Below are positions 2,318-26,099 of a stretch of DNA of 37,037 bases, in pieces. Both the position numbers and the translations under genes were made by a program. This stretch comes from a virus. Taxonomy: Duplodnaviria; Heunggongvirae; Uroviricota; Caudoviricetes. Under the pieces are notes generated by a model. That model was not told the origin of the DNA and did not search any database. It saw only the letters and a list, made by a program, of their open reading frames with translations. Position 1 is the stretch's first letter, and each line of letters starts with the position of its first letter. Location of the stretch: positions 1 through 37,037 of the IMG/VR virus record IMGVR_UViG_2541047915_000010. The stretch is one strand, 5' to 3'.

Positions 2318-2656
2318 ATGCTGAAGCAACGCCGTAATTTTCGTACCGGAACAGAACGCCACGCTAACCGTTTCACTACCAGTGCATCACGCAGCAACAT
2401 CCGCTACAGCCTGAGTGATACACACGCAACGCCGGATGGCTACCCAGTAAAACAAATCGGCGAGCACGCCTGGCTGATTGAGAAAGCTGGAATCGTGATC
2501 CACAAATGCCCACGCAATCCGTTTACCGGAAACCGCATTTTTGCATTGAGCTGTGGTGACAATCAGTTCGGGCAGGATTTCACATTATACGAAGCACTTC
2601 GCACGGTTGATCGTCTGCTTCGCGGGCAAAGTTTTATTAAACAGGCTGATTTATAA
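2318..2656 (+). CDS. Hypothetical early-operon protein
   Basis: 112-aa ORF with a GAGG RBS a few nt upstream of the ATG at 2318; no motif recognised. Confidence 0.45.
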   Translation: MLKQRRNFRTGTERHANRFTTSASRSNIRYSLSDTHATPDGYPVKQIGEHAWLIEKAGIVIHKCPRNPFTGNRIFALSCGDNQFGQDFTLYEALRTVDRLLRGQSFIKQADL

Positions 2657-2666
2657 CAGGTGCTTT

Positions 2667-2954
2667 ATGACCAAAGACCATGCACAAGGTGTATTTATCC
2701 GTTTTATTGATTTTCGCGGTGAACTGTTATTACGTGCATCCGCTATTGACGGAGTGACTCCGGCGGGTAAAAACGGAGCCGACGAAGCCACTTACGTTTA
2801 TCTGAACGGCACGCGACTGCTTGCGGAACTTCCGTACCAGACCGTACGAGAAATCATTAGCGAAGCTGAAAAGGCACGCCAGGTTAATGGCGATGAACCC
2901 TATATCGAAATTATTTGTATGGATTCAGAAGCTGAAATACAGAAAGCAGATTAA
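2667..2954 (+). CDS. Hypothetical early-operon protein
   Basis: ORF 2553-2954 trimmed to the ATG at 2667, just after the upstream stop; 95 aa. Confidence 0.4.
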   Translation: MTKDHAQGVFIRFIDFRGELLLRASAIDGVTPAGKNGADEATYVYLNGTRLLAELPYQTVREIISEAEKARQVNGDEPYIEIICMDSEAEIQKAD

Positions 2955-2962
2955 AGGGCGTT

Positions 2963-3208
2963 GTGATGGGCAAAGAATATAAAACTCTCATTAACAAAGC
3001 ACTTGAGCGTTTTTATTTTCGCTTAAGTGCATCTGGCGCTCATGCTGAACGTGCGGCCCGTGACTCATTGACCAGAGCAATCCGAAGTCTGTATGACGTG
3101 GCTTTTTACGCTGATGATCTGGATGCACTTAACGAACTTTCCGAGCTGATCTGTGCCGCAGAATGCGGGGAACATATTGAACCGTATAAGCTGGGAAATA
3201 TCGCATGA
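2963..3208 (+). CDS. Hypothetical early-operon protein
   Basis: 81-aa ORF in series with the early genes. Confidence 0.4.
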   Translation: MMGKEYKTLINKALERFYFRLSASGAHAERAARDSLTRAIRSLYDVAFYADDLDALNELSELICAAECGEHIEPYKLGNIA

Positions 3209-3318
3209 GTATATTTATCTCATGGCTTGTTCTGATTATTTCGGTGGTCTGCGCCATTGGGATTATGCGAATTATTAATTCAGTAAAAAAGATTGAACGC
3301 TTTTTCACTGAAGAATAA
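3205..3318 (+). CDS. Small hydrophobic peptide (37 aa, single predicted TM helix)
   Basis: ATG at 3205 overlaps the upstream stop (ATGA); translation MSIFISWLVLIISVVCAIGIMRIINSVKKIERFFTEE; below the ORF-track size cutoff. Confidence 0.3.
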   Translation: MSIFISWLVLIISVVCAIGIMRIINSVKKIERFFTEE

Positions 3319-3404
3319 CCGCGCAAATAAGCCCCCAGGTTAAATAAGAAAATGTGAAAACAATCCGCATTCGCGGAGGTATTCGCACACGCCAAGGAGG
3401 CGTA

Positions 3405-3608
3405 ATGGCAATTAAGCATTTTCCTGTCGTTCGTTTCACCTCCAGAGGACGTGAATACGAAGTTGACGAACGCCTGATTACCACAATCGACAAACACCGT
3501 TCAGAAAAGGATGCACATCACATCTATCTCACTGACGGCACTTACTTCTGCGCCACCAACGTGGTGCAGGTGAATCTTATCAGACAGGTACAGGAGTCAC
3601 GCAGATGA
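3405..3608 (+). CDS. Hypothetical early-operon protein
   Basis: ORF 3354-3608 trimmed to the ATG at 3405, which is preceded by an AAGGAGG RBS; 67 aa. Confidence 0.45.
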   Translation: MAIKHFPVVRFTSRGREYEVDERLITTIDKHRSEKDAHHIYLTDGTYFCATNVVQVNLIRQVQESRR

Positions 3609-3850
3609 CCATTCTGGACTACATCGCTGCCAATCCGGGTTGTAGCGGTGGAGAAATCGCCGCAGCACTGAATACACCAACCACAACCATTAATGCGGAG
3701 CTACGCCGTCTCTGGCGCAGCGGTTCAGTCATAAGAAAAGAGCGCAAAACAGGCGGTCGCTTTTCTTATCAGGTAAACCCGATGCCGTTTGGGTGTAGCA
3801 ACCCACTAACCCAGATGTTCAACCAGCTACTGAGGGAAATCAGAGCATGA
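3605..3850 (+). CDS. Putative winged-helix DNA-binding protein
   Basis: 81 aa; start overlaps the upstream stop; GCSGGEIAAALNTPTTTINAELRRLWRSGSVIRKERKTGGRFSYQ resembles a wHTH fold. Confidence 0.45.
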   Translation: MTILDYIAANPGCSGGEIAAALNTPTTTINAELRRLWRSGSVIRKERKTGGRFSYQVNPMPFGCSNPLTQMFNQLLREIRA

Positions 3851-3991
3851 GCACCTCCAACTGCCGGAAACCACGTCGGGCTTCAGCAGCTCATCCGGCA
3901 GCAAAACAAACTCCATTAATTCCTGTTCCGGGCCTTTCCTGCACCTTGTGGCGGGAGGCCTTCGCACATCTGTAACAAGAGGATTGCCGCA

Positions 3992-4357
3992 ATGATTCTC
4001 GCCAACGACTTTCTTGAATACCTGCTCAACACAGAGCGTGATCTTGCCGTTCGCGTGCGTGAACGTTATGACATGTACCTGAAATCCCTGCCTGTACCGC
4101 AGCTCGCTGACGGAAAGATTGTTATTGATGGTCGCTACATGATTGACAGCCACGAGGGAAATTACAGGCTTTACCGCATTGAAGGTGGCACCCCGTCCGT
4201 TATTGGCATTTACCAGCGCCCATCCTCTGCAATCGTCGATGTGATTGCCGACAGCATCCGCATCACACATCGCCATGCCGACACAGAAGACACCGTGCTG
4301 GAAATTCAGCGGCTGGCTACAGTCTGCCGCGACACCCTGAATGGCATGACGAAGTAA
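3992..4357 (+). CDS. Hypothetical early-operon protein
   Basis: 121-aa ORF with an AAGAGGA RBS upstream; no motif recognised. Confidence 0.45.
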   Translation: MILANDFLEYLLNTERDLAVRVRERYDMYLKSLPVPQLADGKIVIDGRYMIDSHEGNYRLYRIEGGTPSVIGIYQRPSSAIVDVIADSIRITHRHADTEDTVLEIQRLATVCRDTLNGMTK

Positions 4358-4363
4358 ATCACT

Positions 4364-7186
4364 ATGACGGCAGAGTACATCAGGGACTGGCAACAACCGC
4401 GCCACGCAGTGGGGCGTGAAGGAACGGGGATCCCCGCTCCTGAATCCGCGCTTTCCTCCTGGCTGGATGCCTACCGGGCAGAGAACGAGCACCGCCAGGA
4501 AATGGCTGATGCGGCGTTCTCCGCCACGCCGCTGGGCAACCTGATTAATAAAAGCCTGGACGCACAGGAAAAACAGGACAAAACCATCACACTGGCAGGA
4601 GACGCCAGAAAACAGGCACGCGGCGCGGTGGATGAAGCCATGGCCTCGCTGCGCCTGCTGCCGTCCTATCTGCGCGATCCGCTTATTCGCCACCTCTCCT
4701 TCCTGCGCAAAAAACAGGAAGCCGATCGTCAGAAAGGAAAAAACGCCAGGCAGGCAGAACGCTATGCGCGTGGGACCCTGCGCAAAATATTCGAACGTCT
4801 GGAGCGCACCGATCACCGCTGGCTGACACCGGGTTATCGCTCCCTTGCCGGACGCGAACGCCTGGACGATTTGCTTTACCTGCCGCAGCTCAACAAACAC
4901 CAGATAAAGACGCTGGCAACCATGACGGCGGCGATGTTCAGCAGCACCTTCGAAAAACTCTGCGATGGCTTTGGCGCGACCGATGGCGAGCTGACCATGG
5001 ATGTAACCCTGAAGGCGTATCAGATGCTGGCCCGCATGGCGTTACACCTGCACGCCATGCCTCCACATTATGACGCACTGACAACAGACAAAGACCGGAG
5101 GAACGAACCGGACACGGAGCTGCTGCCGGGCGCAATCCTTCGCCTGACCTGTGCGGAATGGTGGAAACGCAAACTGTGGCTGTTACGTTGCGAGTGGAGA
5201 GAAGAACAACTCCGCGCCGCCTGTCTGGTTTCCAGAAAAACATCGCCCTATCTGAGCCAGGACGCGTTAAGCGAGTTTCGCGCACAGCGCGAGAAAACAC
5301 GCGATTTCCTGAAAAGTTTCATGCTGGAAAACGAAGACGGGTTCACGATTGATCTCGAGACAGTGTATTACGCGGGAGTAAGTAACCCGGTTCACCGTAA
5401 GGCAGAAATGATGGCCACCATGAAGGGACTGGAACTTCTGGCCGAAGCCCGTGGCGACAGAGCGGTGTTTCTGACTGTCACCTGCCCGTCAAAATACCAC
5501 GCAACAACGGAGAACGGTCATCCGAACCCCAAATGGAACGGGGCCACCATGCGCGACTCCAGCGATTACCTGGTTAACACGTTTTTTGCGGCGGTCCGCA
5601 AAAAACTGAACCGCGACGGCCTGCGCTGGTATGGCATCCGCACGGTGGAGCCTCACCATGACGGCACCGTGCACTGGCATATGATGGTCTTTGCTCATCC
5701 GGAAGAAATCGACAGCATCGTGACCATCACCCGCGATATTGCCATTCAGGAAGACCGCCACGAGCTGGGCAATGATATTACTCCGCGCTTTAAGGTGGAG
5801 TACGTCGACGGCACCAAAGGCACGCCAACCAGCTACATCGCCACCTACATCGGAAAAAACCTGGACAGCCGCGCCGTGGATGGCATCGACCCGAAAACGG
5901 GCAAACCACGCGTTGACCACGAAACCGGAAAATCAATGGCCGAGAGCGTGGAGCGCGCCATCGGTTGGGCACGCCTTCACCGGGTCCGCCAGTTCCAGTT
6001 CTTTGGCATCCCCTCCCGTCAGGTGTGGCGTGAACTCCGCCGCCTTGCCAGCCAGATGGCACGCAACCCGGAAGGCCCGCAACGGCTGAAGGATGACGCA
6101 ATGGATGCGGTACTCGCTGCCGCTGATGCCGGATGTTTTGCCACCTACATAGAGAAACAGGGCGGCGTACTTGTTCCACGCAAAGACTACCTGATTCGCA
6201 CCGCCTACGACCTCGCCGATGAGCTGAACGATTACGGCGAACAGAGTGTACAGATTTACGGGATCTGGTCACCACTCATCGGGGAATCCTCCCGTGTGTG
6301 CACGCACCCGGATAACTGGAAGCTGGTAAGACGTAAACCGGAACAGGAAGGCAGCGCCCACGAAAATGGTTTTGACCTTCAGGGCGGCCCTGCCGCCCCT
6401 TGGACTCGTGGCAATAACTGTCCCCGTGTACAGGAAACGGACAACAACGGGACAGAACAGCCGGAAGAACGGCCAGCACCGTGGCCGCAGCTCCCTGACA
6501 GCGTTGAAGTGAACGAATGGATGCGCTCACTAAAACGGCACGAACGCCGGGCGCTGATGCGTTCGCTTCGTGACAAACAGGCAAAAAACAGCAGTGATGA
6601 AATGCAGAGCTGGACACAGAGCCGCAAACAGCAGCGGCCTTTGCCTGATAACCACGAATTACTCGCTAAAGAATGGCGGGAGTCTGCTGAATCTCTCGGC
6701 CTGCATATCGGTGAACAGCAGATGCAGCACCTGTTACGGGGCGGCAGTCTGTACGTTGACGGCAGCATCATTGCACCGCAGGGATTTGAAATTGTACGCA
6801 AACCGGATACCCGCCCGGACAGCCGAATCACGCAGCTCTGGCAGCGCCTGAGCCGTAACCACGGCGTAAGCAGTACGGAGATCCGCCATAACCCGGTCGC
6901 CAGCTATCTGGAACAGCTGGGGACATTAGACCCCGAAGCCGCCGCACGCCTGGCATCCACACTTCAGCAAGACCAGAACACCATGAAAACACCCGTTACC
7001 GTGCTTTCTGACATGCTGCGCGCCATCCGCGACGCAGAGCACGCACAGAGAATCAGTGAAACCACTGAACGCGCCCGCCGCAAAGCAGACCTGCTGCGGG
7101 GTGGCCTGACCAGTGGAAACAAAAAACAGACAGAAACGGGATTCACAAATCCCGTAAATGAGCAAAAAACGCGCCGCGATATATGA
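4364..7186 (+). CDS. A: Rolling-circle replication initiator / nicking endonuclease (P2 gpA family)
   Basis: 940 aa; HUH motif region GTVHWHMMVF and tyrosine pair in TSYIATYIGKNLD, as in P2 A; position after the early genes. About 180 aa longer at the C-terminus than P2 A as I recall it. Confidence 0.85.
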   Translation: MTAEYIRDWQQPRHAVGREGTGIPAPESALSSWLDAYRAENEHRQEMADAAFSATPLGNLINKSLDAQEKQDKTITLAGDARKQARGAVDEAMASLRLLPSYLRDPLIRHLSFLRKKQEADRQKGKNARQAERYARGTLRKIFERLERTDHRWLTPGYRSLAGRERLDDLLYLPQLNKHQIKTLATMTAAMFSSTFEKLCDGFGATDGELTMDVTLKAYQMLARMALHLHAMPPHYDALTTDKDRRNEPDTELLPGAILRLTCAEWWKRKLWLLRCEWREEQLRAACLVSRKTSPYLSQDALSEFRAQREKTRDFLKSFMLENEDGFTIDLETVYYAGVSNPVHRKAEMMATMKGLELLAEARGDRAVFLTVTCPSKYHATTENGHPNPKWNGATMRDSSDYLVNTFFAAVRKKLNRDGLRWYGIRTVEPHHDGTVHWHMMVFAHPEEIDSIVTITRDIAIQEDRHELGNDITPRFKVEYVDGTKGTPTSYIATYIGKNLDSRAVDGIDPKTGKPRVDHETGKSMAESVERAIGWARLHRVRQFQFFGIPSRQVWRELRRLASQMARNPEGPQRLKDDAMDAVLAAADAGCFATYIEKQGGVLVPRKDYLIRTAYDLADELNDYGEQSVQIYGIWSPLIGESSRVCTHPDNWKLVRRKPEQEGSAHENGFDLQGGPAAPWTRGNNCPRVQETDNNGTEQPEERPAPWPQLPDSVEVNEWMRSLKRHERRALMRSLRDKQAKNSSDEMQSWTQSRKQQRPLPDNHELLAKEWRESAESLGLHIGEQQMQHLLRGGSLYVDGSIIAPQGFEIVRKPDTRPDSRITQLWQRLSRNHGVSSTEIRHNPVASYLEQLGTLDPEAAARLASTLQQDQNTMKTPVTVLSDMLRAIRDAEHAQRISETTERARRKADLLRGGLTSGNKKQTETGFTNPVNEQKTRRDI

Positions 7187-7232
7187 AGCGCGCATAAAAC
7201 AGGCAAAAACGGGATTTCAGAATCCCGTAAAC
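7135..7232. promoter_or_regulatory. Two copies of a 20-bp palindrome upstream of parM (candidate parC centromere/operator)
   Basis: acgggattcacaaatcccgt (7137-7155) and acgggatttcagaatcccgt (7211-7230), each within a repeated caaaaacgggatt...atcccgtaaa context, flanking an AT-rich stretch (atatat at 7179-7184). Confidence 0.4.
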
Positions 7233-7262
7233 GATTAATTAATCAACATAAGGAAAAGCGAC

Positions 7263-8222
7263 ATGAAAATTTGTATCGACGACGGCTCCACCAACATCAA
7301 GCTGGCATGGACTGAGAACGGCGAACGCCGCAACGCCATCAGCCCGAACAGCTTCAAGTCGGAATGGTCTGCGCCGTTCGGTGGCACGCAGCCCGCGAAC
7401 TACATGCTTGATGGCGTGCGCTATGGTTTTGATCCGGTCAGCGATCGCTTTGTCCAGACGACCGACACGCAATACCAGTACAGCGATGTGAATGTCATTG
7501 CCATTCATCACGCGCTGGTCAAATCAGGCATCACACCACAGGAGGTGGATGTGGTTGTCACCCTGCCACTGAGCGAGTATTTCGACACAAACGCACAGCC
7601 GGACATGGCCAACATCAACCGCAAAAAAGCGAACGTTATGCGCCCGGTGGAGTACCAGAACGGCGAGGCATTCACTATCCGTAACGTGCGGGTTATGCCT
7701 GAGTCCATTCCGGCTGGCTTTAAGGCACTGGCTGACATGAGTCCGTTTGAATCCCTGCTGATTGTGGATTTGGGCGGAACCACGCTGGATGTGGCAAAGG
7801 TTCAGGGGCAACTGGCAGGTATCAGCCAGGTGTTTTGCGATCCACACGTAGGCGTTTCTCTGATGGCCGATGCCGTACTGTCAGTGATGGCCACTAACGG
7901 TATGCGCACCAGTCACCACATCGCCAATACCATTATCGAACATCGCCATGATGAAGCCTGGCTGCGCCAGCACATCCACAATGACGCGCATTACGCCAGC
8001 CTGATGGCGGTTATTCGTGAAAAGGAAGAAACACTGAAACAACGCGTGATCCGCGCGCTGGCGGTTTTTTCGGGTTACGGGCGGGTGATGGTTGTCGGTG
8101 GAGGGGCGGAGATTGTGGCACCCGCTATCCGCGAAGCCTGCGGAGTTAATGCGACTTTCATCGCGGACGGGGTGCCACAGTTTGCTCTGGTTAATGGGCT
8201 GTACGCAATGGACAAGGAGTAA
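7263..8222 (+). CDS. parM: Actin-like segregation ATPase ParM/StbA (type II partition)
   Basis: 319 aa; N-terminal phosphate-1 motif MKICIDDGSTNIKLAW and DLGGTTLD, VGGGAE motifs; strong collinear similarity to plasmid R1 ParM as I recall it; RBS AAGGAAA upstream. Confidence 0.85.
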   Translation: MKICIDDGSTNIKLAWTENGERRNAISPNSFKSEWSAPFGGTQPANYMLDGVRYGFDPVSDRFVQTTDTQYQYSDVNVIAIHHALVKSGITPQEVDVVVTLPLSEYFDTNAQPDMANINRKKANVMRPVEYQNGEAFTIRNVRVMPESIPAGFKALADMSPFESLLIVDLGGTTLDVAKVQGQLAGISQVFCDPHVGVSLMADAVLSVMATNGMRTSHHIANTIIEHRHDEAWLRQHIHNDAHYASLMAVIREKEETLKQRVIRALAVFSGYGRVMVVGGGAEIVAPAIREACGVNATFIADGVPQFALVNGLYAMDKE

Positions 8223-8226
8223 ACCA

Positions 8227-8538
8227 ATGACGACACCAACCAGACGGATAAGTTTCTATCTGAAGCCTGCGGCCGTCAAGAACGAAAGCGAAGCATGCGC
8301 CTGGCTGGACAGCCTTACACCAGAAGCCCGCAAAAGCGGCCAACGCGTGGCTTTTCTGGCCGGGCTGGCACTTCTGAAAATGAATCCAGCAGAGGCTTAC
8401 CGACTGGCTGCATGGGCTGACGATGAGGCGTTATCAGTGACACAAACCAGGACAGAATGCCCCGCGTCACAGCCAGTATCAACCGCACAGATAACCAGTC
8501 AGATGGCCGGAAATATCCGGGCGTTATTTCCCGAATAA
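8227..8538 (+). CDS. parR: ParR/StbB-like centromere-binding adaptor
   Basis: ORF 8092-8538 trimmed to the ATG at 8227 (AAGGAG RBS 8 nt upstream); 103 aa; RRISFYLKPAAVKNESEACAWLDSLTPEARKSGQRVAFLAGLAL parallels the R1 ParR N-terminal RHH region; directly downstream of parM. Confidence 0.75.
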   Translation: MTTPTRRISFYLKPAAVKNESEACAWLDSLTPEARKSGQRVAFLAGLALLKMNPAEAYRLAAWADDEALSVTQTRTECPASQPVSTAQITSQMAGNIRALFPE

Positions 8539-8544
8539 CACAAC

Positions 8545-8566
8545 ATCAGGGCGCATCCGCCCTGAT
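8545..8566 (+). terminator. Hairpin after parR (possible terminator)
   Basis: Perfect 9-bp stem atcagggcg / cgccctgat with a 4-nt loop; the downstream T-tract is weak. Confidence 0.35.
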
Positions 8567-8636
8567 GACTTTAATCCGGGAACATAAACAAGGGGGACAC
8601 AATGCAACACATTGACAGAGAAAAAGGAAAAAAAGC

Positions 8637-9044
8637 ATGAACAGAAAACAGAAACAAGAGTTGAAATACTTCTTACGTAAAGAAATTGCCAGGCTTGAAG
8701 ATGCAGAGTCACAATCATCAGAAATTCCGTTCGGAATGGATATCAACGACGCCCGTATGCTTCAGGCATACCGTATAGCTCAGGCTGCACTACAGACAAA
8801 ACCGTTAAATAACATACATGAAAAGTATGATTATTTTACGGATACCGCTTGCTTGCTGACATCTGAAGAACAAAAGATAGCCCAACTTTTAGGCGACGCA
8901 TGGAACCTGTATTTAACATTGCCAGTTGAGCATCCAATGGGTAGAGATGAATTTTGCCGGGCAATTCATCATTGCCAAAATATGGTGTTGGCACGCCCGG
9001 CCATCAGGGCGTTGGCCAGGAAGGGGCAAGGCTATAAAAGATAA
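8637..9044 (+). CDS. Hypothetical protein (cargo of the A-to-cos variable region)
   Basis: 135-aa ORF with an AAAGGA RBS, followed by a strong terminator; no motif recognised. Confidence 0.5.
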   Translation: MNRKQKQELKYFLRKEIARLEDAESQSSEIPFGMDINDARMLQAYRIAQAALQTKPLNNIHEKYDYFTDTACLLTSEEQKIAQLLGDAWNLYLTLPVEHPMGRDEFCRAIHHCQNMVLARPAIRALARKGQGYKR

Positions 9045-9046
9045 GT

Positions 9047-9078
9047 AAAACGCCCTCCTCCAGGGCGTTTATTTCAAT
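9047..9078 (+). terminator. Rho-independent terminator
   Basis: Stem aaacgccct / agggcgttt with loop cctcc, followed by atttc T-rich tail. Confidence 0.6.
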
Positions 9079-9104
9079 GCACAATAGTGCACAAATTTGC
9101 ACAA
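9078..9104. repeat. Three phased TGCACAA direct repeats (10-bp spacing), putative protein-binding iterons
   Basis: tgcacaa at 9078-9084, 9088-9094 and 9098-9104, with another copy near 9169-9175; in the non-coding region upstream of the portal gene where cos is expected. Confidence 0.4.
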
Positions 9105-9477
9105 TTTTTTTGAACGACTTTTTACCCTTCCGGCCCGCATGGCGGCTGGATCCGTCAAGGATCCGTGCGTGCACAAAAAAACGCGTTTTTTCTGCGCGCA
9201 GGTGACGGGGGAACAGCCCGCGTTTCAGGGGGTAAATAGCATTCCCTGAGCGATGTCGCAGCGACACAACAGAATGGCCATATTTCTCACGCTGAGCGTG
9301 AAAAAGATGTGAGGGCTTTTGATTTGATAGGGTGAAAGGTAAGGCCGTCAAAATCGCACTGAGGCGGCGAGAAAATACAGTCAACGCGGTGGGATTGCGT
9401 AAGAGTCTGACCGTCGATGGTGGCGATATACTGGAAGGCGTCGTGAAATTATCTGATTGATACAGGAGCTGGAGAGT

Positions 9478-9502
9478 CGGGGCATAAATTTTTTATGCCC
9501 CG
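9478..9502 (-). terminator. Perfect hairpin immediately downstream of Q (possible terminator)
   Basis: 11-bp stem cggggcataaa / tttatgccccg with a ttt loop; no clear U-run on either strand. Confidence 0.35.
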
Positions 9503-9528
9503 GCGAAGCAGCAGACAAGCGAAGCGCG

Positions 9529-10575
9529 TCAGGATGTGGGCTGGGTATCTAACAGTGCGTAAGGGTTAAAGCGGATCACCTCTTCGCCAAGCCAGTCATT
9601 GATGTGCTTCATGGCCTCCATGACGGGCATCAGCTCGTTAATTGCGTAAACCCGCGCGGCCTTCTCCACATCACCAAACGCACTTTTTTCGCCCGGCATC
9701 GCCCCCATCAGTTGCGGCGGAACGCGGTGCGCAGCCAGCACATCATCACGGGATGCCGCCTTAACATTCATGAACTCATCCTTTGCAGTGATCTGCTGGA
9801 ACGGCAAAATTTGCACACCTTCTTTGCCCCCGTTGGGCGCATGGATGAGCACGTTTTTAAACGCACCACCGCCACGCGCGCCCTGTAACGTTTCTTTCAG
9901 GGAGTCCATGCTTTCGCGGTTTACCTGCGCTGCACCGATGTAGATGATGCACCCGGCGTGGGATCCGTTGTCGTAGTACAGTTTTCTGAACATGTCCGCC
10001 GAATGAGAAAGGCTGGCCGAGAGTAATGCGCCAAGATATTCCGGCATGCCGTAGATTTCCTGGTTAATATCCGGATTCATCAGGTGGCACACTTTGCCAG
10101 GGCGAAACTGGAACGCGTCCTTGCCATCCTGCACATACCACCATGATTCAAGATCGCTTCCGCGTCGCATGTATTTCGCCAGTGCGTGCCGTAATTTAAG
10201 CGGTTCGCCGAGCATATTGCTTCGAAGCTCAAGGAATGCGTTACCGAACACAAACCAGTCCAGCGCCAGCGCCGAGAAATCCTGCCGGGAAAGCAGCGGG
10301 TGCGGGATGTAGCAACCGAGTAATACATTGCGCTTAAAGTAAAGCGCAGACTGATGCCAGGACGTTTGCCGGGCTGCTCTTGCCAGACCGTACCAGTCCA
10401 CCGGGGTTTCATACCACCGCCCGTTATCAGCACAGTACATATTGTCCAGCAGGTCATGCCCGGTCAGGCGATAAGGACCATCAAATGTGAATGCACTGAG
10501 CGATGATTCTTTCCTGAGCGCATCAGCGAGATCAATGCGTGAACTCATGCGCACCTTTTTATTTTTTCTGCTCAT
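9529..10575 (-). CDS. Q: Portal (capsid portal vertex) protein
   Basis: 348 aa, size and position as P2 gpQ; adjacent to and co-oriented with the large terminase. Confidence 0.85.
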   Translation of the reverse strand: MSRKNKKVRMSSRIDLADALRKESSLSAFTFDGPYRLTGHDLLDNMYCADNGRWYETPVDWYGLARAARQTSWHQSALYFKRNVLLGCYIPHPLLSRQDFSALALDWFVFGNAFLELRSNMLGEPLKLRHALAKYMRRGSDLESWWYVQDGKDAFQFRPGKVCHLMNPDINQEIYGMPEYLGALLSASLSHSADMFRKLYYDNGSHAGCIIYIGAAQVNRESMDSLKETLQGARGGGAFKNVLIHAPNGGKEGVQILPFQQITAKDEFMNVKAASRDDVLAAHRVPPQLMGAMPGEKSAFGDVEKAARVYAINELMPVMEAMKHINDWLGEEVIRFNPYALLDTQPTS

Positions 10576-12326
10576 CAGAACTCCATAACCGTGAAACGCT
10601 CGTTTTCTCCTTCGCCGCCAATCGGTTCGTTAATGACAGCAAGCATGGTTGCCCACGCAAGGTCGCCGTGGCTGATCCCCCTCGCGCGGTCCGTTTCGTA
10701 AGTGATAAAGCCGCCCGGTGTTTTCACCTTACGCACGGCGTTAAAGGCCGCGACCAGCTCGCGTTCGGCGCGATCGTATTCCCACCGCCCGGCACGCATT
10801 ATTTGCAGCATTTTCAGTACCAGCGACCGTTTTGATGACAGCGTGAAGGTGTACGGAATAGCAGCAGGGAAAAACCGTTTCACTATCTGATAAACAGCCT
10901 CCCCGTTCCCGCCCGTCACATCAATGCCGATGTGTTCCACGTTGTAGCGATACGTGAACTCTTCAATGACTCTGGCCTGTTCTTCAAACTCCAGCCCCTG
11001 AACGCGTCTCGTCTCCACCGTTCGAAAACGGCCACCAGGAACAGCCGGAGGAACCACCACGGACACAGCGCCGCTGTCGCCGTTGCCACTGCTGCCGTTT
11101 GCGTCATACCCAATCCATACCGGACGATTCCCCATCGGGCGGGGAGCAAAAGGTTTCCAGTCTTTCCAGTCGTCGTATCCGTCAACACCGCAGCCAATCA
11201 GGATATTCAGGTTAAATGCCGATTCCCCTTCGCGGACAAACTCACACATATAGAGATTGAGGAACTCGTCTTCGGTGTTTTCATCACGAATTTCGTCGAT
11301 ATCGGTGTGTTTCCAGCCGTGATTAACCACATCTTCCAGCGTGACAATTTGCCGCCACGTCCGGTCAGGGCAGATAAGCCCGTTATGCAGCGTTTTCCAG
11401 TCCACAGAAAAACGCTGGCGTTTATGCGAGGCCTTTTTCTCGTTCCAGCGGTCGCCGTTCCAGTAGGCGTATGCCTCGTGCGTTTCGGTGGATGGCGTGG
11501 AGAAGTAGGTGCGCCGCAGTCCGCTGAGGGTTGCCATAGCGCCAGCCACCTTGCGCAGTTCAGCAAAGCGACTGACCCAGAAAAATTCATCAAAATAAAA
11601 ATTGCCCGTATAGGACTGTGCCGACGCAGCAGAAGTGCCGAGAAAATGCAGCTCTGCGCCGTTGGAGAGGATGATTTTATCGCCCCCTTTCAGCTCCACA
11701 TCAACTTCAGCCGCGGCCTTCTGAATAATGCTTTTAAACTGGAACGCCTGACGACGCGACGCAGACAAAAAAATCTGGTTACGCTGGTAAGGTTGCGCCA
11801 CATCGTCACGCAGCGCCATCAGCAGAGCTTCCTGTGCAAAATACCAGGTCGCCCCAATCTGTCGGGATTTCAGGATCATCCTGTTACGTATCCCGGCTTC
11901 CCTGCAAAGGGTCAGGGAGTCAAACCAGCCCCGCTGATGCCACTCCAGCCTGCTGATGATTTTTTCCCGCAGTGCGGAAATCTGTTCCGGCGTGAAATGA
12001 TTTTTGAGTTTTTTCGCCCGGCCTTTCTTTCCTGCGGCCATCACATCCGGCTGGCCATCATGCAGCTTTTTAAGCTGCCGGGTCAGCAGGTCTATTTCCT
12101 TAAAGTCACCGCCTGTTTTATTCTGTTTTTCAGTAAGCTGGATGAGACGCGCATCGATGGACTGCGTGACACGCTGCACGGGTGGCGTTTCATCCCACTG
12201 GTCGCGTTTTTTCCACGCATAAATCGTGTTCGGGTTTATTCCCATCAGACGTGATATTTCTGCGGGCGGATAACCCTGCCAGTAAAGTTGCCGCGCACGC
12301 TGGCGCACAAAAGCGTCCTGAATCAT
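10575..12326 (-). CDS. P: Terminase large (ATPase) subunit
   Basis: 583 aa, size as P2 gpP (about 590 aa); N-terminus MIQDAFVRQRARQLYWQGYPPAEISRLMGINPNTIYAWKKRDQWDE is a small HTH; divergent from O as in P2. Confidence 0.85.
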   Translation of the reverse strand: MIQDAFVRQRARQLYWQGYPPAEISRLMGINPNTIYAWKKRDQWDETPPVQRVTQSIDARLIQLTEKQNKTGGDFKEIDLLTRQLKKLHDGQPDVMAAGKKGRAKKLKNHFTPEQISALREKIISRLEWHQRGWFDSLTLCREAGIRNRMILKSRQIGATWYFAQEALLMALRDDVAQPYQRNQIFLSASRRQAFQFKSIIQKAAAEVDVELKGGDKIILSNGAELHFLGTSAASAQSYTGNFYFDEFFWVSRFAELRKVAGAMATLSGLRRTYFSTPSTETHEAYAYWNGDRWNEKKASHKRQRFSVDWKTLHNGLICPDRTWRQIVTLEDVVNHGWKHTDIDEIRDENTEDEFLNLYMCEFVREGESAFNLNILIGCGVDGYDDWKDWKPFAPRPMGNRPVWIGYDANGSSGNGDSGAVSVVVPPAVPGGRFRTVETRRVQGLEFEEQARVIEEFTYRYNVEHIGIDVTGGNGEAVYQIVKRFFPAAIPYTFTLSSKRSLVLKMLQIMRAGRWEYDRAERELVAAFNAVRKVKTPGGFITYETDRARGISHGDLAWATMLAVINEPIGGEGENERFTVMEF

Positions 12327-12480
12327 TGCTCCCCCTGAGTAATTACAGGAAGATTACCCGCGCGCGAAACCGTTCTCCTTAACCCCCTGTTCTGGCCGTT
12401 TTCTTACAACAAAAGTCCTTTGTATCAGCCTGTTACGCTTTGCCATCATGACTGAAGAACCAGTCAGAGGGGCAAAAACT
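12327..12480. promoter_or_regulatory. Divergent late-promoter region between P and O (expected Ogr-dependent promoters)
   Basis: Positional, by analogy with P2 PP/PO; I could not confidently place the TGT-N12-ACA activator element by eye. Confidence 0.35.
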
Positions 12481-13317
12481 ATGGCTAATGAAAAAAAGAC
12501 ATCCCGCAAAAAGTTTCGCGTGGCTGTCTCCGGATCAACTGTTGATGGCCGCGAAATCAGCCCGGTACATCTGCGTGAAGCCGCCGAGAACTTCAACCCG
12601 GATGTTTACGCTGCCCGCGTGAACGTTGAGCACTATCTCTCGCCATGCCCGTCAAGCGAATTTTCCGCAATGGGCGATGTCACCGCGCTGAGTACGGAAG
12701 ATATTACGGAAGGCCCGCTGGCCGGACGTACTGCGCTGTATGCAGAAATCGAACCGACCGAGCGCATGAAGCAGCTTGTCGCTGACGGCAAGAAAATCTA
12801 TTCCAGTATCGAACTGCACCCGCAGTTCTCCGTTAACGGGCGCGCCTATCTGGTCGGGCTGGCGATGACCGACACCCCGGCAAGCCTGGGCACTGAGCGC
12901 CTGAAATTCACGGCACAGCAGCGTCAGGCGGTGATGACGTTCAACAGTATCCAGGGTGAAGCACCGCTTATCTCCGAAGCCATCGAGTCTGAAATCATCG
13001 AAATGGCAGAACAACGCCAGGAAGAAGGCACCCAGTGGTTTAACCGCGTAATGGGGATTATTGGCCGTGGCCGCAAAGCGGATGACGCCAGTTTTTCCCG
13101 TATTCAGGAAGCGGTGGAAGGCGTCGCAACGTCACAGGCCGACATTATCGACCGTTTTAATGTGCTGGAAACCCGCCATCAGCAGGACCGCCAGAAAATT
13201 ACGTCACTGACCACAGAGCTGACAGCACTGAAGGAAAAACTGCGCACGCAGGACGGCGATCCGCAGAACCGGTTCACCGCAACGGGCGCAGCCTCCGACC
13301 AGCTGGCTGACTTCTGA
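12481..13317 (+). CDS. O: Capsid scaffolding protein
   Basis: ORF 12448-13317 trimmed to the ATG at 12481 (RBS cagagggg); MANEKKTSRKKFRVAVSGSTVDGREI and YLVGLAMTDTPASLGTE match the P2 gpO pattern. Confidence 0.85.
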   Translation: MANEKKTSRKKFRVAVSGSTVDGREISPVHLREAAENFNPDVYAARVNVEHYLSPCPSSEFSAMGDVTALSTEDITEGPLAGRTALYAEIEPTERMKQLVADGKKIYSSIELHPQFSVNGRAYLVGLAMTDTPASLGTERLKFTAQQRQAVMTFNSIQGEAPLISEAIESEIIEMAEQRQEEGTQWFNRVMGIIGRGRKADDASFSRIQEAVEGVATSQADIIDRFNVLETRHQQDRQKITSLTTELTALKEKLRTQDGDPQNRFTATGAASDQLADF

Positions 13318-13339
13318 TAAGACAAAGGAGCAAATTTTT

Positions 13340-14392
13340 ATGAATCTGGTGATGTCAGATATTACCCGCAACAAGCTGGGTTGCTATATGGCGCAGCAGG
13401 CGTCGCTTAATAATATCCCGGTTTCTGCGCTGGTATCGCGATTTACCGTAGAACCCTCGGTGCAGCAGCGTTTTGAAAACGCCTCAAAGGAAAGCACCGA
13501 ATTTACAAAAAGAATTAACGTGATCGGCGTGACCGACCAGAAAGGCGAAAAAATCCTCCTGGATACCACAGGACCGATTGCGCGCACGAATACCAGTTAT
13601 GACGGCACAAAACGCCGTAACCCGAATAACGTGGTTGATCTGAAAAACCGCAAATACCAGTGCGAACAGGTGAACTATGACACGTTTATTTCATATCCGC
13701 AGCTTGATGCCTGGGCGGCACATCCTGATTTTCAGTCCCGCATCAGCGCACAGATTGCCCGACAGGTGGCGCTTGACCGCATCATGATCGGTTTCAACGG
13801 CACGTCTCACGCGGATGAGTCCAACTTCAGCACCAACAAGCTGCTTCAGGACGTTAACGTGGGCTGGCTGGAGCACATCAGAACCGACGCCAGCGAGCGC
13901 GTTATGAATGACGTGACGCTGACCTCCCGCAACATGGACAACACCGTGGCGCACGCGGGTAAGTATGCGAACGCTGATGCACTGGTACAGGACGCACGCT
14001 CATCCCTGCTGGATGAATGGCACAAGGAAGCTGACGACCTCGTGGTGATTATGGGGCGCAACCTGTTTAACTCGCTGCGTCTGCCCGTGCTGAACAGCAT
14101 CAGCGGCCAGAATCCCAATGCGGAATTACTTGCCGGGCAGCTCATCCTGTCATCGCGCACCATTGGCGGGCTGGGCGTGTTCCTTGCGCCGTTCTTCCCG
14201 GATGCAACGATGCTGATCACCTCGTTCAACAACCTGTCGATTTACTGGCAGAAAGGTTCAATGCGTCGCCTGATGAAAGACGAACCGGAATACAACCGCA
14301 TCGCCACCTACCAGTCCATCAATGACGCTTATGTCGTTGAAGACTATGGCAAGTGCGCGATGGTCACTGGCCTGAAGTTCGCCGACAGCTAA
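13340..14392 (+). CDS. N: Major capsid protein
   Basis: 350 aa; KFTVEPSV, MIGFNGT, VGWL, YVVEDYG segments are shared with P2 gpN; AAAGGAG RBS. Confidence 0.9.
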   Translation: MNLVMSDITRNKLGCYMAQQASLNNIPVSALVSRFTVEPSVQQRFENASKESTEFTKRINVIGVTDQKGEKILLDTTGPIARTNTSYDGTKRRNPNNVVDLKNRKYQCEQVNYDTFISYPQLDAWAAHPDFQSRISAQIARQVALDRIMIGFNGTSHADESNFSTNKLLQDVNVGWLEHIRTDASERVMNDVTLTSRNMDNTVAHAGKYANADALVQDARSSLLDEWHKEADDLVVIMGRNLFNSLRLPVLNSISGQNPNAELLAGQLILSSRTIGGLGVFLAPFFPDATMLITSFNNLSIYWQKGSMRRLMKDEPEYNRIATYQSINDAYVVEDYGKCAMVTGLKFADS

Positions 14393-14437
14393 TCAACTCA
14401 CGGCGGGCATCATGCCCGCCTGTAACGGAGAGAAAAA

Positions 14438-15238
14438 ATGATTACTCCTGCACAGCAACACTGGCAGAACGTGATGGCACAGCGCGCAGGCCGGGCGAAT
14501 GAAGGCGTGGACCACGCCGCGCGTACCGCGCATGAAGAGGTGCTGTATCGTCTGCGTCTGGCACAGGCCCGGCTTAAGGGCGTACAGGCCAGAAGCGCGA
14601 AAGCCGCCATCAAAAAAGAGTTATTGCCGGACTTTTCCGGCTGGATTGAAGGAACGCTGGAGGCTGACGGCGGGCAGCAGGATGAAGTGATTGCCACGCT
14701 GATGGTGTGGGCGATTGACTGCGGCGATCTTCCACTGGCATTGCGTATTGGTGCGTATGTGGTTCATCACAACCTCATTATGCCGGATAACTTTGGCCGT
14801 ACTGCTGCCACAGTGCTGACCGAAGAAATCTGCAACCCGGTACTGACGCAGGCCGGAACGGATGCCGACGCGGATTTATCCGCCTTTATCGAACCACTGG
14901 ACACCCTCCGGGAGATTGTCACCGACCAGGACATGCCGGACGAAGTGCGCGCCAAATTATGCAAGGCGTGCGCCTTTGCCCGCCGTGGCCTGAGTGATGC
15001 GGACAGCATGGCCCTGTCACTGAAGCTGCTGCGCGAAGCGATGCACCTGAACCCGAACGCAGGTGTGAAACGCGAGATTGCAACCCTTTCCCGCGCCCTG
15101 AAAAAAGCCGATTCCGCAGCCGCACCAGAAGACGCCAGCGCACAGCAGGCGCAGGACGAAAGCAGCAAAAGTAAAAAGACAACGCGGAAGCCTGCAACAC
15201 GAAAAACCACCGCGACGCAGAAGACGAAGCGCGGTTAA
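14438..15238 (+). CDS. M: Terminase small (endonuclease) subunit
   Basis: 266 aa, position after N as P2 gpM; basic C-terminal tail. Confidence 0.75.
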   Translation: MITPAQQHWQNVMAQRAGRANEGVDHAARTAHEEVLYRLRLAQARLKGVQARSAKAAIKKELLPDFSGWIEGTLEADGGQQDEVIATLMVWAIDCGDLPLALRIGAYVVHHNLIMPDNFGRTAATVLTEEICNPVLTQAGTDADADLSAFIEPLDTLREIVTDQDMPDEVRAKLCKACAFARRGLSDADSMALSLKLLREAMHLNPNAGVKREIATLSRALKKADSAAAPEDASAQQAQDESSKSKKTTRKPATRKTTATQKTKRG

Positions 15239-15340
15239 CGACTGACCCCGTCAGCGGGCGGCGTGCTCGGTGTTCCGGTCTGACTCCGTGACCGTTTACA
15301 CCGCGCACCCACCGCCCGATTTTTTTCAGGAGTGAACCCC

Positions 15341-15835
15341 ATGAGTATGGTTGCCAGAACTGAACCAAGACCCGCAGAGGACGACATCACCGATACCGAT
15401 GATGGCGACACTCGCATTTCAGCAGGTGCATTCTGGCCGGATATTGTGCTGCGCGAGCTGCGTCTGGCGGTACGACTGCCGGGCCGCGTGACCACCTCCC
15501 GCCTGCTGCATACTGCCACCGGGGCCGTGGCTCACGTTACCCGCGAGCTGGAAGCATGGCAGCAGGAACAGCAGGCGGCTGGCCATCAGACGCTGGCCGA
15601 TGTTCCGGCACCCGTAATTAACGGAGAAAGCGTCAATCTCTGGCACTGGCGCAATGCTGTTTATACCGCCACACGCGCCCTGATTCTGGAGCGTTACCGC
15701 GATGCGGACACAACGGACAAGGGCGACCGCCGGGCGGACGCACTGGATATACAGACATCGGATTTGTGGCGCGATGTGAGCTGGGCCATCTCTGACATTC
15801 TGTGCCGCCCGCGAATCTTTGCGGAGTTGTGCTGA
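15341..15835 (+). CDS. L: Head completion/stabilisation protein
   Basis: ORF 15332-15835 trimmed to the ATG at 15341 (RBS caggag); size and position as P2 gpL. Confidence 0.75.
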   Translation: MSMVARTEPRPAEDDITDTDDGDTRISAGAFWPDIVLRELRLAVRLPGRVTTSRLLHTATGAVAHVTRELEAWQQEQQAAGHQTLADVPAPVINGESVNLWHWRNAVYTATRALILERYRDADTTDKGDRRADALDIQTSDLWRDVSWAISDILCRPRIFAELC

Positions 15836-16035
15836 TGAAAGTGAAGGCACTGGAAGGCGACACCGTGGATTCGCTCTGTTTCCGGTACTACGGCACGACG
15901 CAGGGCGTCACCGAAAAGGTGCTGGATGCCAACCCCGGACTCTGTCAGCAGGTATTTCTGGACGCCGGGCAGGAAGTGGAGATGCCGGAGCCGGAGAAGA
16001 AGAAACGAGAAATGATTCAGTTGTGGGGGGAGTAG
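15835..16035 (+). CDS. X: Tail protein X (LysM-like)
   Basis: MKVKALEGDTVDSLCFRYYGTTQGVTEKVLDANPGL matches the P2 gpX pattern (MKTFALQGDTLDAICVRYYGRTEGVVETVLAANPGL); 66 aa. Confidence 0.85.
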   Translation: MKVKALEGDTVDSLCFRYYGTTQGVTEKVLDANPGLCQQVFLDAGQEVEMPEPEKKKREMIQLWGE

Positions 16036-16037
16036 CA

Positions 16038-16361
16038 GTGAGCACCATTCAAACAGGGATCACAGAGCAGGTTATTGCATGGCTCTTTGACCACCTGCCA
16101 ACGGTGTATGCAGTAGGCGCGGCGGTCAGCATTTCCGCGCTGATGAGTCTTTATGACGGACGAACACTGGTTCAGACCGTAACGGGATCGCTGGCGTGCG
16201 GCGTTCTTGCCATGGCCGTGGCCGGGTCGTTGCGCTTCTTCGGTTTTCCTGAAGATGCCGTGACGTTTATCGGCGCATCAATCGGTTTTATGGGGGCAGA
16301 GAAAGCACGCGACAAGGTTATTGCGGCCTTTAATCGCAGGGTGAAGGAGAAGGACGAATGA
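16038..16361 (+). CDS. Putative holin
   Basis: GTG start at 16038 preceded by ggggggag; 107 aa with 2-3 hydrophobic helices and a charged C-terminus; directly upstream of the endolysin. Confidence 0.6.
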   Translation: MSTIQTGITEQVIAWLFDHLPTVYAVGAAVSISALMSLYDGRTLVQTVTGSLACGVLAMAVAGSLRFFGFPEDAVTFIGASIGFMGAEKARDKVIAAFNRRVKEKDE

Positions 16362-16750
16362 GCAACACATTTAAATTCAGCAGCCGGAGCGAAAAGAATT
16401 TGCAGGGCGTAAATCCTGATCTGGTGAAAGTGACCCGACGGGCACTGGAAATCTCGGAAGTGGATTTTGGTATCACCGAAGGGTTGCGCAGCCGTTACCG
16501 CCAGAAGCAACTGGTGGCCACGGGTAAGAGCCAGACCATGAACAGCCGCCACCTTACGGGGCATGCCGTGGATGTTGTGGCTTATATCGGCAGCCAGGTG
16601 TCATGGGAATGGTCGCTGTACGAAAAAATCGCAGCAGCATTCAGACAGGCCAGCCGGGAACTGAATATTCCGGTGGAATGGGGCGGCGACTGGAAGACCC
16701 TGAAAGACGGACCGCATTTTCAGTTACCACACGGAGCCTATCCGGCATGA
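16358..16750 (+). CDS. Endolysin, L-alanyl-D-glutamate peptidase (peptidase M15 family)
   Basis: 130 aa; SRHLTGHAVDV and DGPHFQLPH resemble the zinc-ligand motifs of M15 phage endolysins; position in the lysis cassette. Confidence 0.75.
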   Translation: MSNTFKFSSRSEKNLQGVNPDLVKVTRRALEISEVDFGITEGLRSRYRQKQLVATGKSQTMNSRHLTGHAVDVVAYIGSQVSWEWSLYEKIAAAFRQASRELNIPVEWGGDWKTLKDGPHFQLPHGAYPA

Positions 16751-17154
16751 AGCTCTGGCCCACGCTGGGTGTCGCTTTCCTTCTGATTGCCGCATGGGGA
16801 ACATCCATACGTCTGTCGTGGTCGCTGGGCAGGGAGAACGCCAGAAACGAAGCGCAGGCCAGCACCCTGAAAAGTACCGTCGACACCCTGAATATCATCA
16901 GCACCGGGGTACAGGATATGCAGCAGGTGCTGGCGCAACTCCGCGTGGAAAATCAGCAACGCAATCAGGACGGAGAAGCCAGACGTGAACAGCTACGCAA
17001 CGATATTGCAAAAGATGAATGCGCCCACGCTTTGCCTGATGCTCGTTTTACTGACAGGTTGCGCAGGCACGCAGAACGCGCCACGGCCAGCGCCGTCAGT
17101 CCGGCTTATACCGCAGACGCTGACCATACCGGTAACGCCTCCCCCCTTCCCTGA
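16747..17154 (+). CDS. lysB: Inner-membrane spanin component (Rz/LysB-like)
   Basis: ATG at 16747 overlaps the endolysin stop; N-terminal TM helix LWPTLGVAFLLIAAWG followed by a charged coiled-coil-like region. Confidence 0.7.
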   Translation: MKLWPTLGVAFLLIAAWGTSIRLSWSLGRENARNEAQASTLKSTVDTLNIISTGVQDMQQVLAQLRVENQQRNQDGEARREQLRNDIAKDECAHALPDARFTDRLRRHAERATASAVSPAYTADADHTGNASPLP

Positions 17155-17305
17155 CACTCCCACATGGGGAAATCTCGGTATATGGGGCGACCGCCTTCTG
17201 GATGCACTGGAAACCTGTAACGCGGATAAACGGGCCATTGAATTACTGGAACAGCGCAGACTGCAACGACTGAACAACGAGGACAACAACCATGCTGAAA
17301 ACTGA
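17015..17305 (+). CDS. lysC: Outer-membrane lipoprotein spanin component (Rz1/LysC-like), overlapping lysB in another frame
   Basis: Lipobox LLTGC (MLVLLTGCAG) followed by a proline-rich segment; starts inside lysB and extends beyond it, as in P2 lysB/lysC. Confidence 0.65.
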   Translation: MNAPTLCLMLVLLTGCAGTQNAPRPAPSVRLIPQTLTIPVTPPPFPDTPTWGNLGIWGDRLLDALETCNADKRAIELLEQRRLQRLNNEDNNHAEN

Positions 17306-17759
17306 TTCCCTGCGTGAAGCCATGACCCGTTCATGCCGATGGTGTCAGGCCAACCCGGAAAAATTCACCATTTTCGTGGAGAGCGGCAACATTGAAACGA
17401 CCGGAGAAACGCCCTCGTTTGTTTACCGCTATCAGATGGTGATGTTTGTCATGGATTACGCCGGGGAGCTGGACGACCTCACGCTGCCGCTGCTGGCGTG
17501 GTTATCCGAAAATCAGCCACAGTTGTTGCTCAACCCTGAGCGTAATCAGGACATCAAATTTTCCGCCGTTATCAATGACGATGACAGCGCCGATCTCCTG
17601 TTTACGCTCCCCCTGCGGGAACGCGTTCGCATCACGCGCAGCAGTCAGGGCACACCGCAGGCAGAACACCTGCCGGAGCCAAAACCCCGCCTGCCATCTT
17701 CCGAAGGCGACTGGTCGCATGTATTCCAGGATGTGACGTGGGGTGAAAGCGATGGATAA
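17292..17759 (+). CDS. R: Tail completion protein R
   Basis: 155 aa, same length and position as P2 gpR. Confidence 0.75.
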   Translation: MLKTDSLREAMTRSCRWCQANPEKFTIFVESGNIETTGETPSFVYRYQMVMFVMDYAGELDDLTLPLLAWLSENQPQLLLNPERNQDIKFSAVINDDDSADLLFTLPLRERVRITRSSQGTPQAEHLPEPKPRLPSSEGDWSHVFQDVTWGESDG

Positions 17760-18965: not shown

Positions 18966-19312
18966 CAACCCGCTACACAGGAATGAATCCGGACGGGACG
19001 GGAAACCTGAACGATATGGAGCACCTGAAACAGTCAGTCAGGGATATCCTGACCACCCCGCTGGCAAGCCGGGTTATGCGACGGGAATATGGCAGCCTTG
19101 TGCCTGATTTGATTGACGAACCCATGAATAACACCACGCGTCTGCAATGCATGAGTGCTGCCGTGATTGCGCTGACACGATGGGAACCCCGCATTGCCCT
19201 GGACGCCATCGACGTTGTCTGGAAGGCAGGAGGCCGCGCCGGGGTGACGCTGTCGGGCACTGTCATGCAGACCATGCAGAATGTTGAATTAACCATCACG
19301 CTGAGAGAGTAA
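18962..19312 (+). CDS. W: Baseplate wedge protein W (gp25-like)
   Basis: 116 aa (P2 gpW about 115 aa); aggagg RBS. Confidence 0.8.
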   Translation: MTTRYTGMNPDGTGNLNDMEHLKQSVRDILTTPLASRVMRREYGSLVPDLIDEPMNNTTRLQCMSAAVIALTRWEPRIALDAIDVVWKAGGRAGVTLSGTVMQTMQNVELTITLRE

Positions 19313-19315
19313 ATC

Positions 19316-22862: not shown

Positions 22863-22868
22863 TTATAT

Positions 22869-23875: not shown

Positions 23876-23879
23876 TGGT

Positions 23880-24919: not shown

Positions 24920-24925
24920 ATATAA

Positions 24926-26093: not shown

Positions 26094-26099
26094 CGTTAA

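Follow-up and report, generated by a model that had tools for sequence, protein, structure and literature searches.

A conserved parMR gene pair beside the replication gene of P88-like prophages of Escherichia coli, with a candidate two-dyad centromere

In the ParMRC systems of plasmids R1/NR1 and pB171 a centromere-like site, parC, is followed by parM, encoding an actin-like ATPase, and parR, encoding a DNA-binding adaptor. Plasmid-type partition genes are also found in the temperate phages P1 (ParAB), N15 (SopAB) and D6 (StbA/ParM), which are maintained as plasmids with plasmid-type replicons. In Corynebacterium glutamicum, the integrated prophage CGP3 codes for an actin-like filament protein, AlpC, together with a co-transcribed DNA-binding adaptor, AlpA, whose sites (alpS) lie upstream of its own operon, and the system serves excised circular phage DNA (PMC4446434, PMC5539076). 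AlpC and AlpA are induced early, and the phage DNA requires them if it is to replicate efficiently (PMC4446434). Here we describe a parM-parR pair (parMR) in a 37,037-nt stretch of Caudoviricetes DNA, IMG/VR record IMGVR_UViG_2541047915_000010, the whole of which is called the window. As judged from its reading frames and substitution pattern, parMR is complete and under purifying selection, and it looks functional. We tentatively propose, with somewhat less than even confidence, that it is a conserved type II segregation cassette acting on replicating phage circles and not a device for maintaining a plasmid prophage.

The window is a P88-like phage of the genus Xuanwuvirus, family Peduoviridae (P2-type), and an E. 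coli prophage, to judge from its gene order, which is that of phage P88 (NC_026014), and from its 92–97% nucleotide identity to P88 over 2354-20648, 25480-32938 and 36406-37037. The genes needed to follow the argument are these:

7263-8222, + strand: parM, actin-like partition ATPase of 319 amino acids (aa), recognized by Pfam, PHROG and R1 ParM structures
8227-8538, + strand: parR (stbB family), 103 aa, its ATG 4 nt past the parM stop
4364-7186, + strand: gpA, rolling-circle replication endonuclease of 940 aa (Phage_GPA, E=8.3e-131)
9529-10575, - strand: portal, downstream of parMR and followed by the large terminase, on the strand opposite to parMR
596-1720, - strand: intact tyrosine-type integrase at the left end

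An earlier note, made from the letters of the window, had placed ParM and ParR at 7263-8538. The coordinates are exact, and profile searches confirm both proteins as true homologues (StbA_N and Plasmid_stab_B). The note was also right about the setting, a P2-type phage with an integrase in which the pair has gpA on one side and portal/cos on the other.

In Pfam, ParM is recognized by StbA_N (E=1.8e-82) and by the ParM C-terminal domain (6.3e-69); in PHROG it falls into family 691, 'partition protein'. Residues 2-316 align with crystallized R1 ParM (1MWK and others; E=8.3e-93), a full-length match. The protein carries DDGSTNIKL and DLGGTTLD, and alignment with R1 ParM reveals that IDDGSTNIKL, VMPESIPAG, DLGGTTLD and GGGAE are all retained, the phosphate-binding, catalytic PES and adenosine motifs being identical. 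The ATPase of a type II system, a ParM/StbA protein with intact nucleotide-binding motifs, is present. Identity to plasmid ParMs is about 47% for the R1 type and up to 52% for others, the closest true plasmid ParMs being 52% identical; none fell between 60% and 99%. When the phage collection was searched by megablast and tblastn, ParM was found in 14 P88-type records and in the P1-like phage-plasmid D6, at 48% identity.

ParR belongs to Pfam Plasmid_stab_B (PF10784; E=1.7e-24, residues 6-76) and PHROG 2515 (E=1.5e-57), so that the adaptor expected directly 3' of a type II parM is also in place. A search of the PDB with the single ParR sequence gave no match; only a family profile, built from 28 phage ParRs, reached the pB171 ParR structure (2JD3), which it matched over the DNA-binding domain (E=0.008). 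ParR is only 23–28% identical to plasmid ParRs, and tblastn of ParR against plasmids returned phage-borne copies and no true plasmid ParR. The close resemblance to R1 claimed in the earlier note therefore stands for ParM but not for ParR.

Alignments divide ParR into three parts: the N-terminal DNA-binding domain (residues ~1-65) is conserved, the linker that follows (~66-92) is variable, and the C-terminal tail, NIRALFPE, is again conserved. Among E. coli alleles identity ranges from 97% down to 42%, with variation restricted to the linker of about 25 residues; the first 65 residues are nearly invariant (M1, R6, R7, I8, F10, Y11, L12, K13, P14 and others), as is the C-terminal NI(R/Q)ALFPE. 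Across phage ParRs N-[IA]-x-x-L-F-P is invariant or nearly so at the extreme C-terminus. This tail aligns with the C-termini of plasmid ParRs, ETRKNIKNLFPDDE in the IncF/IncL-M types and KKNAMKLIN in the R1 type, and shares with those of R1/NR1 and pB171 the form N-x-x-x-L-[FI]. In R1 the C-terminal tail is the part of ParR that binds ParM. At the level of motifs, then, phage ParR has a putative ParM-binding tail. Phage and plasmid ParRs alike conserve residues of the putative ribbon-helix-helix (RHH) region and the C-terminal motif, whereas the linker is free to vary. The phage protein differs from its plasmid counterparts in belonging to an integrating phage and in its length, 103 aa versus 116–147 aa, its linker being much shorter. 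The AlphaFold2 monomer has a mean pLDDT (predicted local distance difference test) of 57.7, with helices at 20-29, 32-52 and 54-61; the N-terminal strand is unformed, and the RHH fold needs a dimer. A Foldseek search of the PDB with this low-confidence model yielded no meaningful match. We also considered whether the ParR alleles diversify in specificity and rejected the idea, as the changes are confined to the linker.

Upstream of parM lies a pair of direct repeats, each centered on a 20-bp dyad, ACGGGATT-N4-AATCCCGT:

7120-7161, + strand: distal copy of the 42-nt direct repeat, candidate parC half, inside the last gpA codons
7136-7155: distal dyad, ACGGGATT-CACA-AATCCCGT, core GGG-N10-CCC at 7138-7153
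7193-7234, + strand: proximal copy of the 42-nt direct repeat, candidate parC half
7209-7228: proximal dyad, ACGGGATT-TCAG-AATCCCGT, core at 7211-7226

The two copies are 81% identical and 73 bp apart. The proximal one is followed by an invariant ATTAAT and then by the parM ribosome-binding site, and the last codons of gpA overlap the distal dyad. The strict pattern GGGATT-N4-AATCCC occurs twice in the 37-kb window, where 0.16 sites are expected, and both sites are upstream of parM. Both dyads are retained in P88, 569R5, 503458, Citrobacter phiSM, Hafnia, Cronobacter and E. albertii, with conserved arms and variable loops. Four lineages (the window, Hafnia, Plesiomonas and a second Hafnia lineage) have a GGG-N10-CCC pair with 72–73 bp spacing at -51 to -59 and -124 to -131 from the parM ATG. 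Although the flanks of Plesiomonas and the second Hafnia lineage can barely be aligned, the pair is present there too. Each locus with the pattern has a single GGG-N10-CCC pair at 70–75 bp spacing. Whereas the distance from the dyads to parM is fixed, the end of the upstream gene ranges from -45 to -114; therefore the element belongs to parMR and not to gpA. In the Plesiomonas dyad the ten inner bases lack self-complementarity; this favors a protein-binding site of two half-sites over an RNA hairpin. The inverted repeat upstream of parM is a different one in Serratia and Enterobacter (ATAGAAAAAT ... ATTTTTCTAT), and their ParR N-terminus reads NRK, not TRR. In these few lineages the ParR N-terminus appears to covary with the type of upstream repeat, a pattern that is suggestive.

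We tentatively regard the two dyads as a candidate centromere to which ParR would bind. The succession of site, parM and parR agrees with that of R1/NR1 and pB171. Their arrangement is not that of a typical type II parC, an array of 10–11-bp iterons around the par promoter: the plasmid comparators do have iteron arrays, while upstream of phage parM we found no such array, only two dyads of 16–20 bp with no recognizable promoter between the repeat blocks. The parC of pCTXM360 comes closer, with two blocks upstream of parM at a spacing like the 73 bp of the window. An Rfam scan of the whole window gave no match.

The coding sequences bear the marks of selection. Ratios of nonsynonymous to synonymous substitution (dN/dS) were calculated by the Nei-Gojobori method between the window and six relatives, giving 0.02–0.09 for ParM (dS up to 0.61), 0.20–0.37 for ParR and 0.18–0.26 for gpA. 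Both reading frames are intact in all aligned relatives. Within the P88 lineage ParM retains 95–97.5% amino acid identity, on par with portal, terminase and capsid, and gpA 63–87%. Against remote P2-like prophages ParM is 54–62% identical, the highest of five genes (portal 29–47%, terminase 40–46%, gpA 34–54%). We rejected the notion that ParM is the most conserved gene within the P88 lineage, where portal, terminase and capsid equal it and gpA is the outlier. gpA itself evolves much faster than its neighbors; its identity to the Hafnia relative is 63%, compared with 95% for ParM and 98% for the portal.

The position of parMR is as constant as its sequence. The phage records with this ParM, or with this tail of gpA, number 14; every one is P88-type, and those that have been classified are Xuanwuvirus. 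In 14/14 records sharing this gpA, parMR comes directly after it, and the same records share a long C-terminal extension of gpA (its last ~260 codons), which among phage records occurs only in those with parMR. The order gpA-parM-parR-cargo-portal is found in E. coli, E. albertii, Citrobacter, Cronobacter, Hafnia, Plesiomonas, Serratia and Enterobacter. ParMs of Plesiomonas, Serratia, Enterobacter and the second Hafnia lineage are only 54–62% identical to that of the window, yet they occupy the same position in P2-type prophages. Because remote P2-type prophages hold parMR at the same place and the nearest plasmid ParM is 52% identical, the association of ParMR with P2-type phages is, on the comparisons made here, old and not a recent capture. 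In remote relatives the genes after parR are HicAB, a KAP NTPase and ogr-like genes; among relatives at large a membrane protein is found there as well.

A perfect hairpin with a 10-bp stem (8544-8567, no strand assigned) stands just past parR and lacks a good + strand T-tract. The conserved module has its right boundary at this hairpin: in many relatives homology stops there or shortly before, at query positions 1352-1374 of segment 7187-8560. The variable cargo slot is 8568-9528, between parR and the portal. By its position across relatives, parMR is a fixed part of the replication-gene block, and the true variable cargo lies downstream of parR. This does not fit the earlier note, which had treated parMR as variable cargo of the tin/old kind; parMR is fixed after gpA in the phage records, at about 94% of E. 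coli gpA sites and in distant P2-like prophages.

To gauge prevalence, 5426 complete E. coli genomes and the 72,556 plasmid records of PLSDB were surveyed. The parMR segment occurs in 1307/5426 genomes (24%) at 1455 places, 1453 of them chromosomal and 2 on plasmids. The matching gpA occurs in 1383 genomes at 1548 places, and comparison of the two counts of places gives the ~94% just cited. In PLSDB 7 records match parMR, five of them very large replicons. Only one stand-alone circular copy was found there, NZ_CP148288.1. This circular 'plasmid' of 34,461 bp, from an E. coli isolated from a cat, consists of a complete P88-like genome and has the integrase. Three other records were considered as episomes. 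The Shigella 26.8-kb 'plasmid', the remaining PLSDB match, was rejected as a linear fragment disrupted by IS1; 'phage 520873' was rejected because it contains the host flank yecA, which makes it an excised prophage region, and its record is linear; the record of 'phage 503458', which like that of 520873 has a CP accession, is linear as well.

In view of this prevalence parMR can hardly be called unusual, as the earlier note had it. Its presence in P88-type phages is already known, routinely annotated and ordinary for the phage group. P88 ParM and ParR are 99.7% and 95% identical to those of the window, and RefSeq labels them, at the same position, 'plasmid segregation protein ParM' and 'partition protein'. 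The system has also been discussed for P88 by Pfeifer et al. 2021, whose phage-plasmid screen picked up P88, so that the idea of a dual lifestyle is already in print (PMC7969092). The P88 paper does not mention parM or parR. We found no experimental study of P88-type parMR in the literature; papers that combine ParM with P2-like phages name ParM in reference lists or for plasmids. The present analysis adds prevalence, a conservation of parMR at one and the same position that reaches deep into the P2-type prophages, selection estimates, the domain logic of ParR and the two-dyad centromere candidate.

Most long open reading frames (ORFs) from the cox side (~2025) through gpA, parM, parR and 8637-9044 are on the + strand, including all those that match a family. 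In the gpA-parM interval simple consensus scans found no sigma-70-like promoter and no + strand terminator. The first convincing + strand hairpin with a T-rich stretch, at 9048-9070, lies past the early block and before the portal gene is reached; it was recognized by eye, the scan having scored it for the - strand only. Since parMR is on the same strand as gpA with no recognizable promoter or terminator between them, we infer that it is probably co-transcribed with gpA by read-through from the early operon. On expression in the O157:H7 prophage CP-933T, the papers on the proteome and on ciprofloxacin, and one supplement, report no ParM or ParR.

How might parMR act on replicating phage circles? 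Upon derepression, after infection or induction, ParM and ParR would be made along with the replication genes. ParR dimers would bind the two GGG-N10-CCC dyads upstream of parM, whose 73-bp spacing corresponds to about seven helical turns, and the NIRALFPE tails would capture the ends of ParM filaments. ATP-driven polymerization of ParM between two ParR-bound DNAs would then push these apart. In this way extrachromosomal circular phage genomes may be dispersed or partitioned, favoring efficient replication, packaging or inheritance by both daughters. Among the options raised in the earlier note, stabilizing or positioning a replicating intermediate is thus the favored one. AlpC/AlpA of CGP3 would be the best functional analogue. 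The likeness is confined to architecture: parMR comes last among the co-directional early genes, and neither a promoter nor a terminator was called. The two systems come from different host phyla and different types of phage, and the order is alpA-alpC in CGP3 but motor-then-adaptor in the window.

Several points weigh against action on replicating circles. P2 and 186, like most of the other P2-type phages, lack a par system and yet replicate well, hence any benefit from par is not essential to the P2-type mode of replication. R1 parC has ten iterons, far more than two dyads, and for this reason the centromere assignment is tentative. The dyads have undergone no compensatory or independent changes and so could serve another purpose. 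The invariant ATTAAT, 10–17 nt past the proximal dyad, could be a weak ParR-regulated promoter active in lysogens, and the promoter scan was one for simple consensus sequences. Lastly, such a phage does exist as a 34.4-kb circular 'plasmid' record (NZ_CP148288.1).

That record bears most directly on the possibility that P88-like phages are facultative phage-plasmids, persisting as a low-copy, ParMR-partitioned circular episome as well as by integration. It is a whole genome with its integrase, low-copy plasmids are the typical carriers of type II par systems, the true phage-plasmid D6 has a ParM 48% identical to that of the window, and P88 is among the candidates of the 2021 screen (PMC7969092). 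We nevertheless consider this unlikely. Spontaneous induction could be the origin of the DNA in the circular record, and that record is one in 72,556, set against 1453 chromosomal copies out of 1455 in E. coli. The integrase is intact, and phage with the same int module are integrated in 308 genomes. The sole replication gene seen is the rolling-circle gpA, which is expected to be repressed in a lysogen, and there is no plasmid-type replicon. P1, N15 and D6 differ in just these respects, the family of the window being >99% integrated and equipped with a tyrosine integrase. A phage-plasmid lysogen carries its phage as an autonomous extrachromosomal element, and the distribution found here is not of that kind; episomal maintenance, as suggested in the earlier note, draws little support from it. 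Still more doubtful is a second lifestyle for the clade as a whole, which would make its members integrative phage-plasmids with a ParMR-partitioned low-copy episome and a two-dyad centromere. Such an episome would serve prior to integration, at times when no attB is available, or in prolonged carrier states.

Another possibility is that parMR has an accessory function in lysogens, either interference with incoming related phages or with plasmids whose centromeres are similar (exclusion or incompatibility), or an action on the host chromosome by way of the integrated dyads. The interval between A and Q of P2-type phages is a known site of lysogen-expressed exclusion genes (tin and old in P2); across relatives the N-terminal domain of ParR and the dyads are near-identical, which would allow a resident ParR to bind a superinfecting genome; the ATTAAT could provide parMR with its own promoter; and parMR is retained in O157:H7 P2-like prophages, which we take to be CP-933T of the EDL933 annotation and which one paper calls cryptic. 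On the other hand, ParM, ParR and the neighboring ORF match no PADLOC defense family, leaving the exclusion function proposed in the earlier note without support, and no consensus promoter was found between gpA and parM. Interference by ParR alone would not need the strong constraint seen on the ParM ATPase motifs and the ParR tail, and parMR is invariant while the true cargo beside it turns over. An accessory function is in our view improbable. The dyads, in turn, could be mRNA hairpins for processing or stability, or sites for another protein, the true ParR site being elsewhere or absent. E. coli-type dyads have an 8-bp stem and a 4-nt loop, the region around them has an RNA fold z of -5.2, their loops vary while the arms are kept, they score as terminator-like on the minus strand, and plasmid parC consists of iteron arrays and not of two dyads. 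However, no minus-strand gene is transcribed at the dyads, the P88 and Cronobacter variants add mismatches without compensation, and Plesiomonas and the second Hafnia lineage keep only GGG...CCC at a fixed 16-bp span with unpaired inner bases. Spacing (72–73 bp) and distance to parM are likewise constant, while the distance to the upstream gene varies. Hairpins or foreign sites are thus rather unlikely. Finally, nothing except its odd location suggests that parMR is a decaying, functionless remnant of plasmid capture. Both ORFs are intact in the aligned relatives and the low ParM dN/dS, at dS up to 0.61, refutes decay; 1307 genomes carry parMR and the nearest plasmid ParM is 52% identical, indicating an old association. 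Decay is extremely improbable.

The carriers of parMR are the commonest P2-like prophage group of E. coli and include prophages of enteropathogenic E. coli (EPEC) E2348/69, O157:H7 and sequence type 131 (ST131). If parMR positions or partitions replicating circles, the idea drawn from AlpAC, that phages organize their DNA with actin homologues, would extend to a tractable E. coli phage, and parMR would define an unusually small centromere. If instead there is an episomal state, the boundary between integrating phages and phage-plasmids would be blurred.

Elsewhere in the window, the top match of the gpA segment is the EPEC E2348/69 prophage (99.9% identity). Differences from P88 lie in the immunity/integrase module, the cargo after parR and a 3.4-kb AT-rich insert between gpD and ogr. 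A helix-turn-helix repressor is found with the integrase at the left end, and positions 1-2353 (integrase, repressor, cox) have no nucleotide match in P88 or pZ1323PEC0009-2, while the remaining genome is 92–97% identical. By this comparison 1-2353 looks like an immunity/integration module that swaps within the genus. Two ORFs are of note as possible cargo:

8637-9044, + strand: ORF of 135 aa in the slot after parR, matching PHROG 13916 ('DNA ligase' label) in its C-terminal half only
33191-36310, + strand: ORF of 1039 aa within the AT-rich insert

The first has no Pfam match. The insert that holds the second (32943-36404, between gpD and the ogr/hok end) has a G+C content of ~33%, versus ~55% for the backbone, and is absent from P88 and pZ1323PEC0009-2. 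The 1039-aa ORF has no match in Pfam, NCBIfam, PHROGs, PADLOC or the PDB. Its homologues form a family of ~1040–1069 aa across Enterobacterales, many on plasmid-sized contigs, and are labelled 'hypothetical' or, implausibly, 'MFS (major facilitator superfamily) transporter'. It is a candidate orphan cargo or defense gene. Lastly, two ORFs of 203 aa each, at 22869-23480 (-) and 24308-24919 (+), have equal Pfam scores as tail-fiber assembly protein (Caudo_TAP), and the region around them, 20649-25479, is mostly without a match in P88. Their opposed arrangement may point to an invertible tail-fiber segment like the one beside the annotated DNA invertase of P88.

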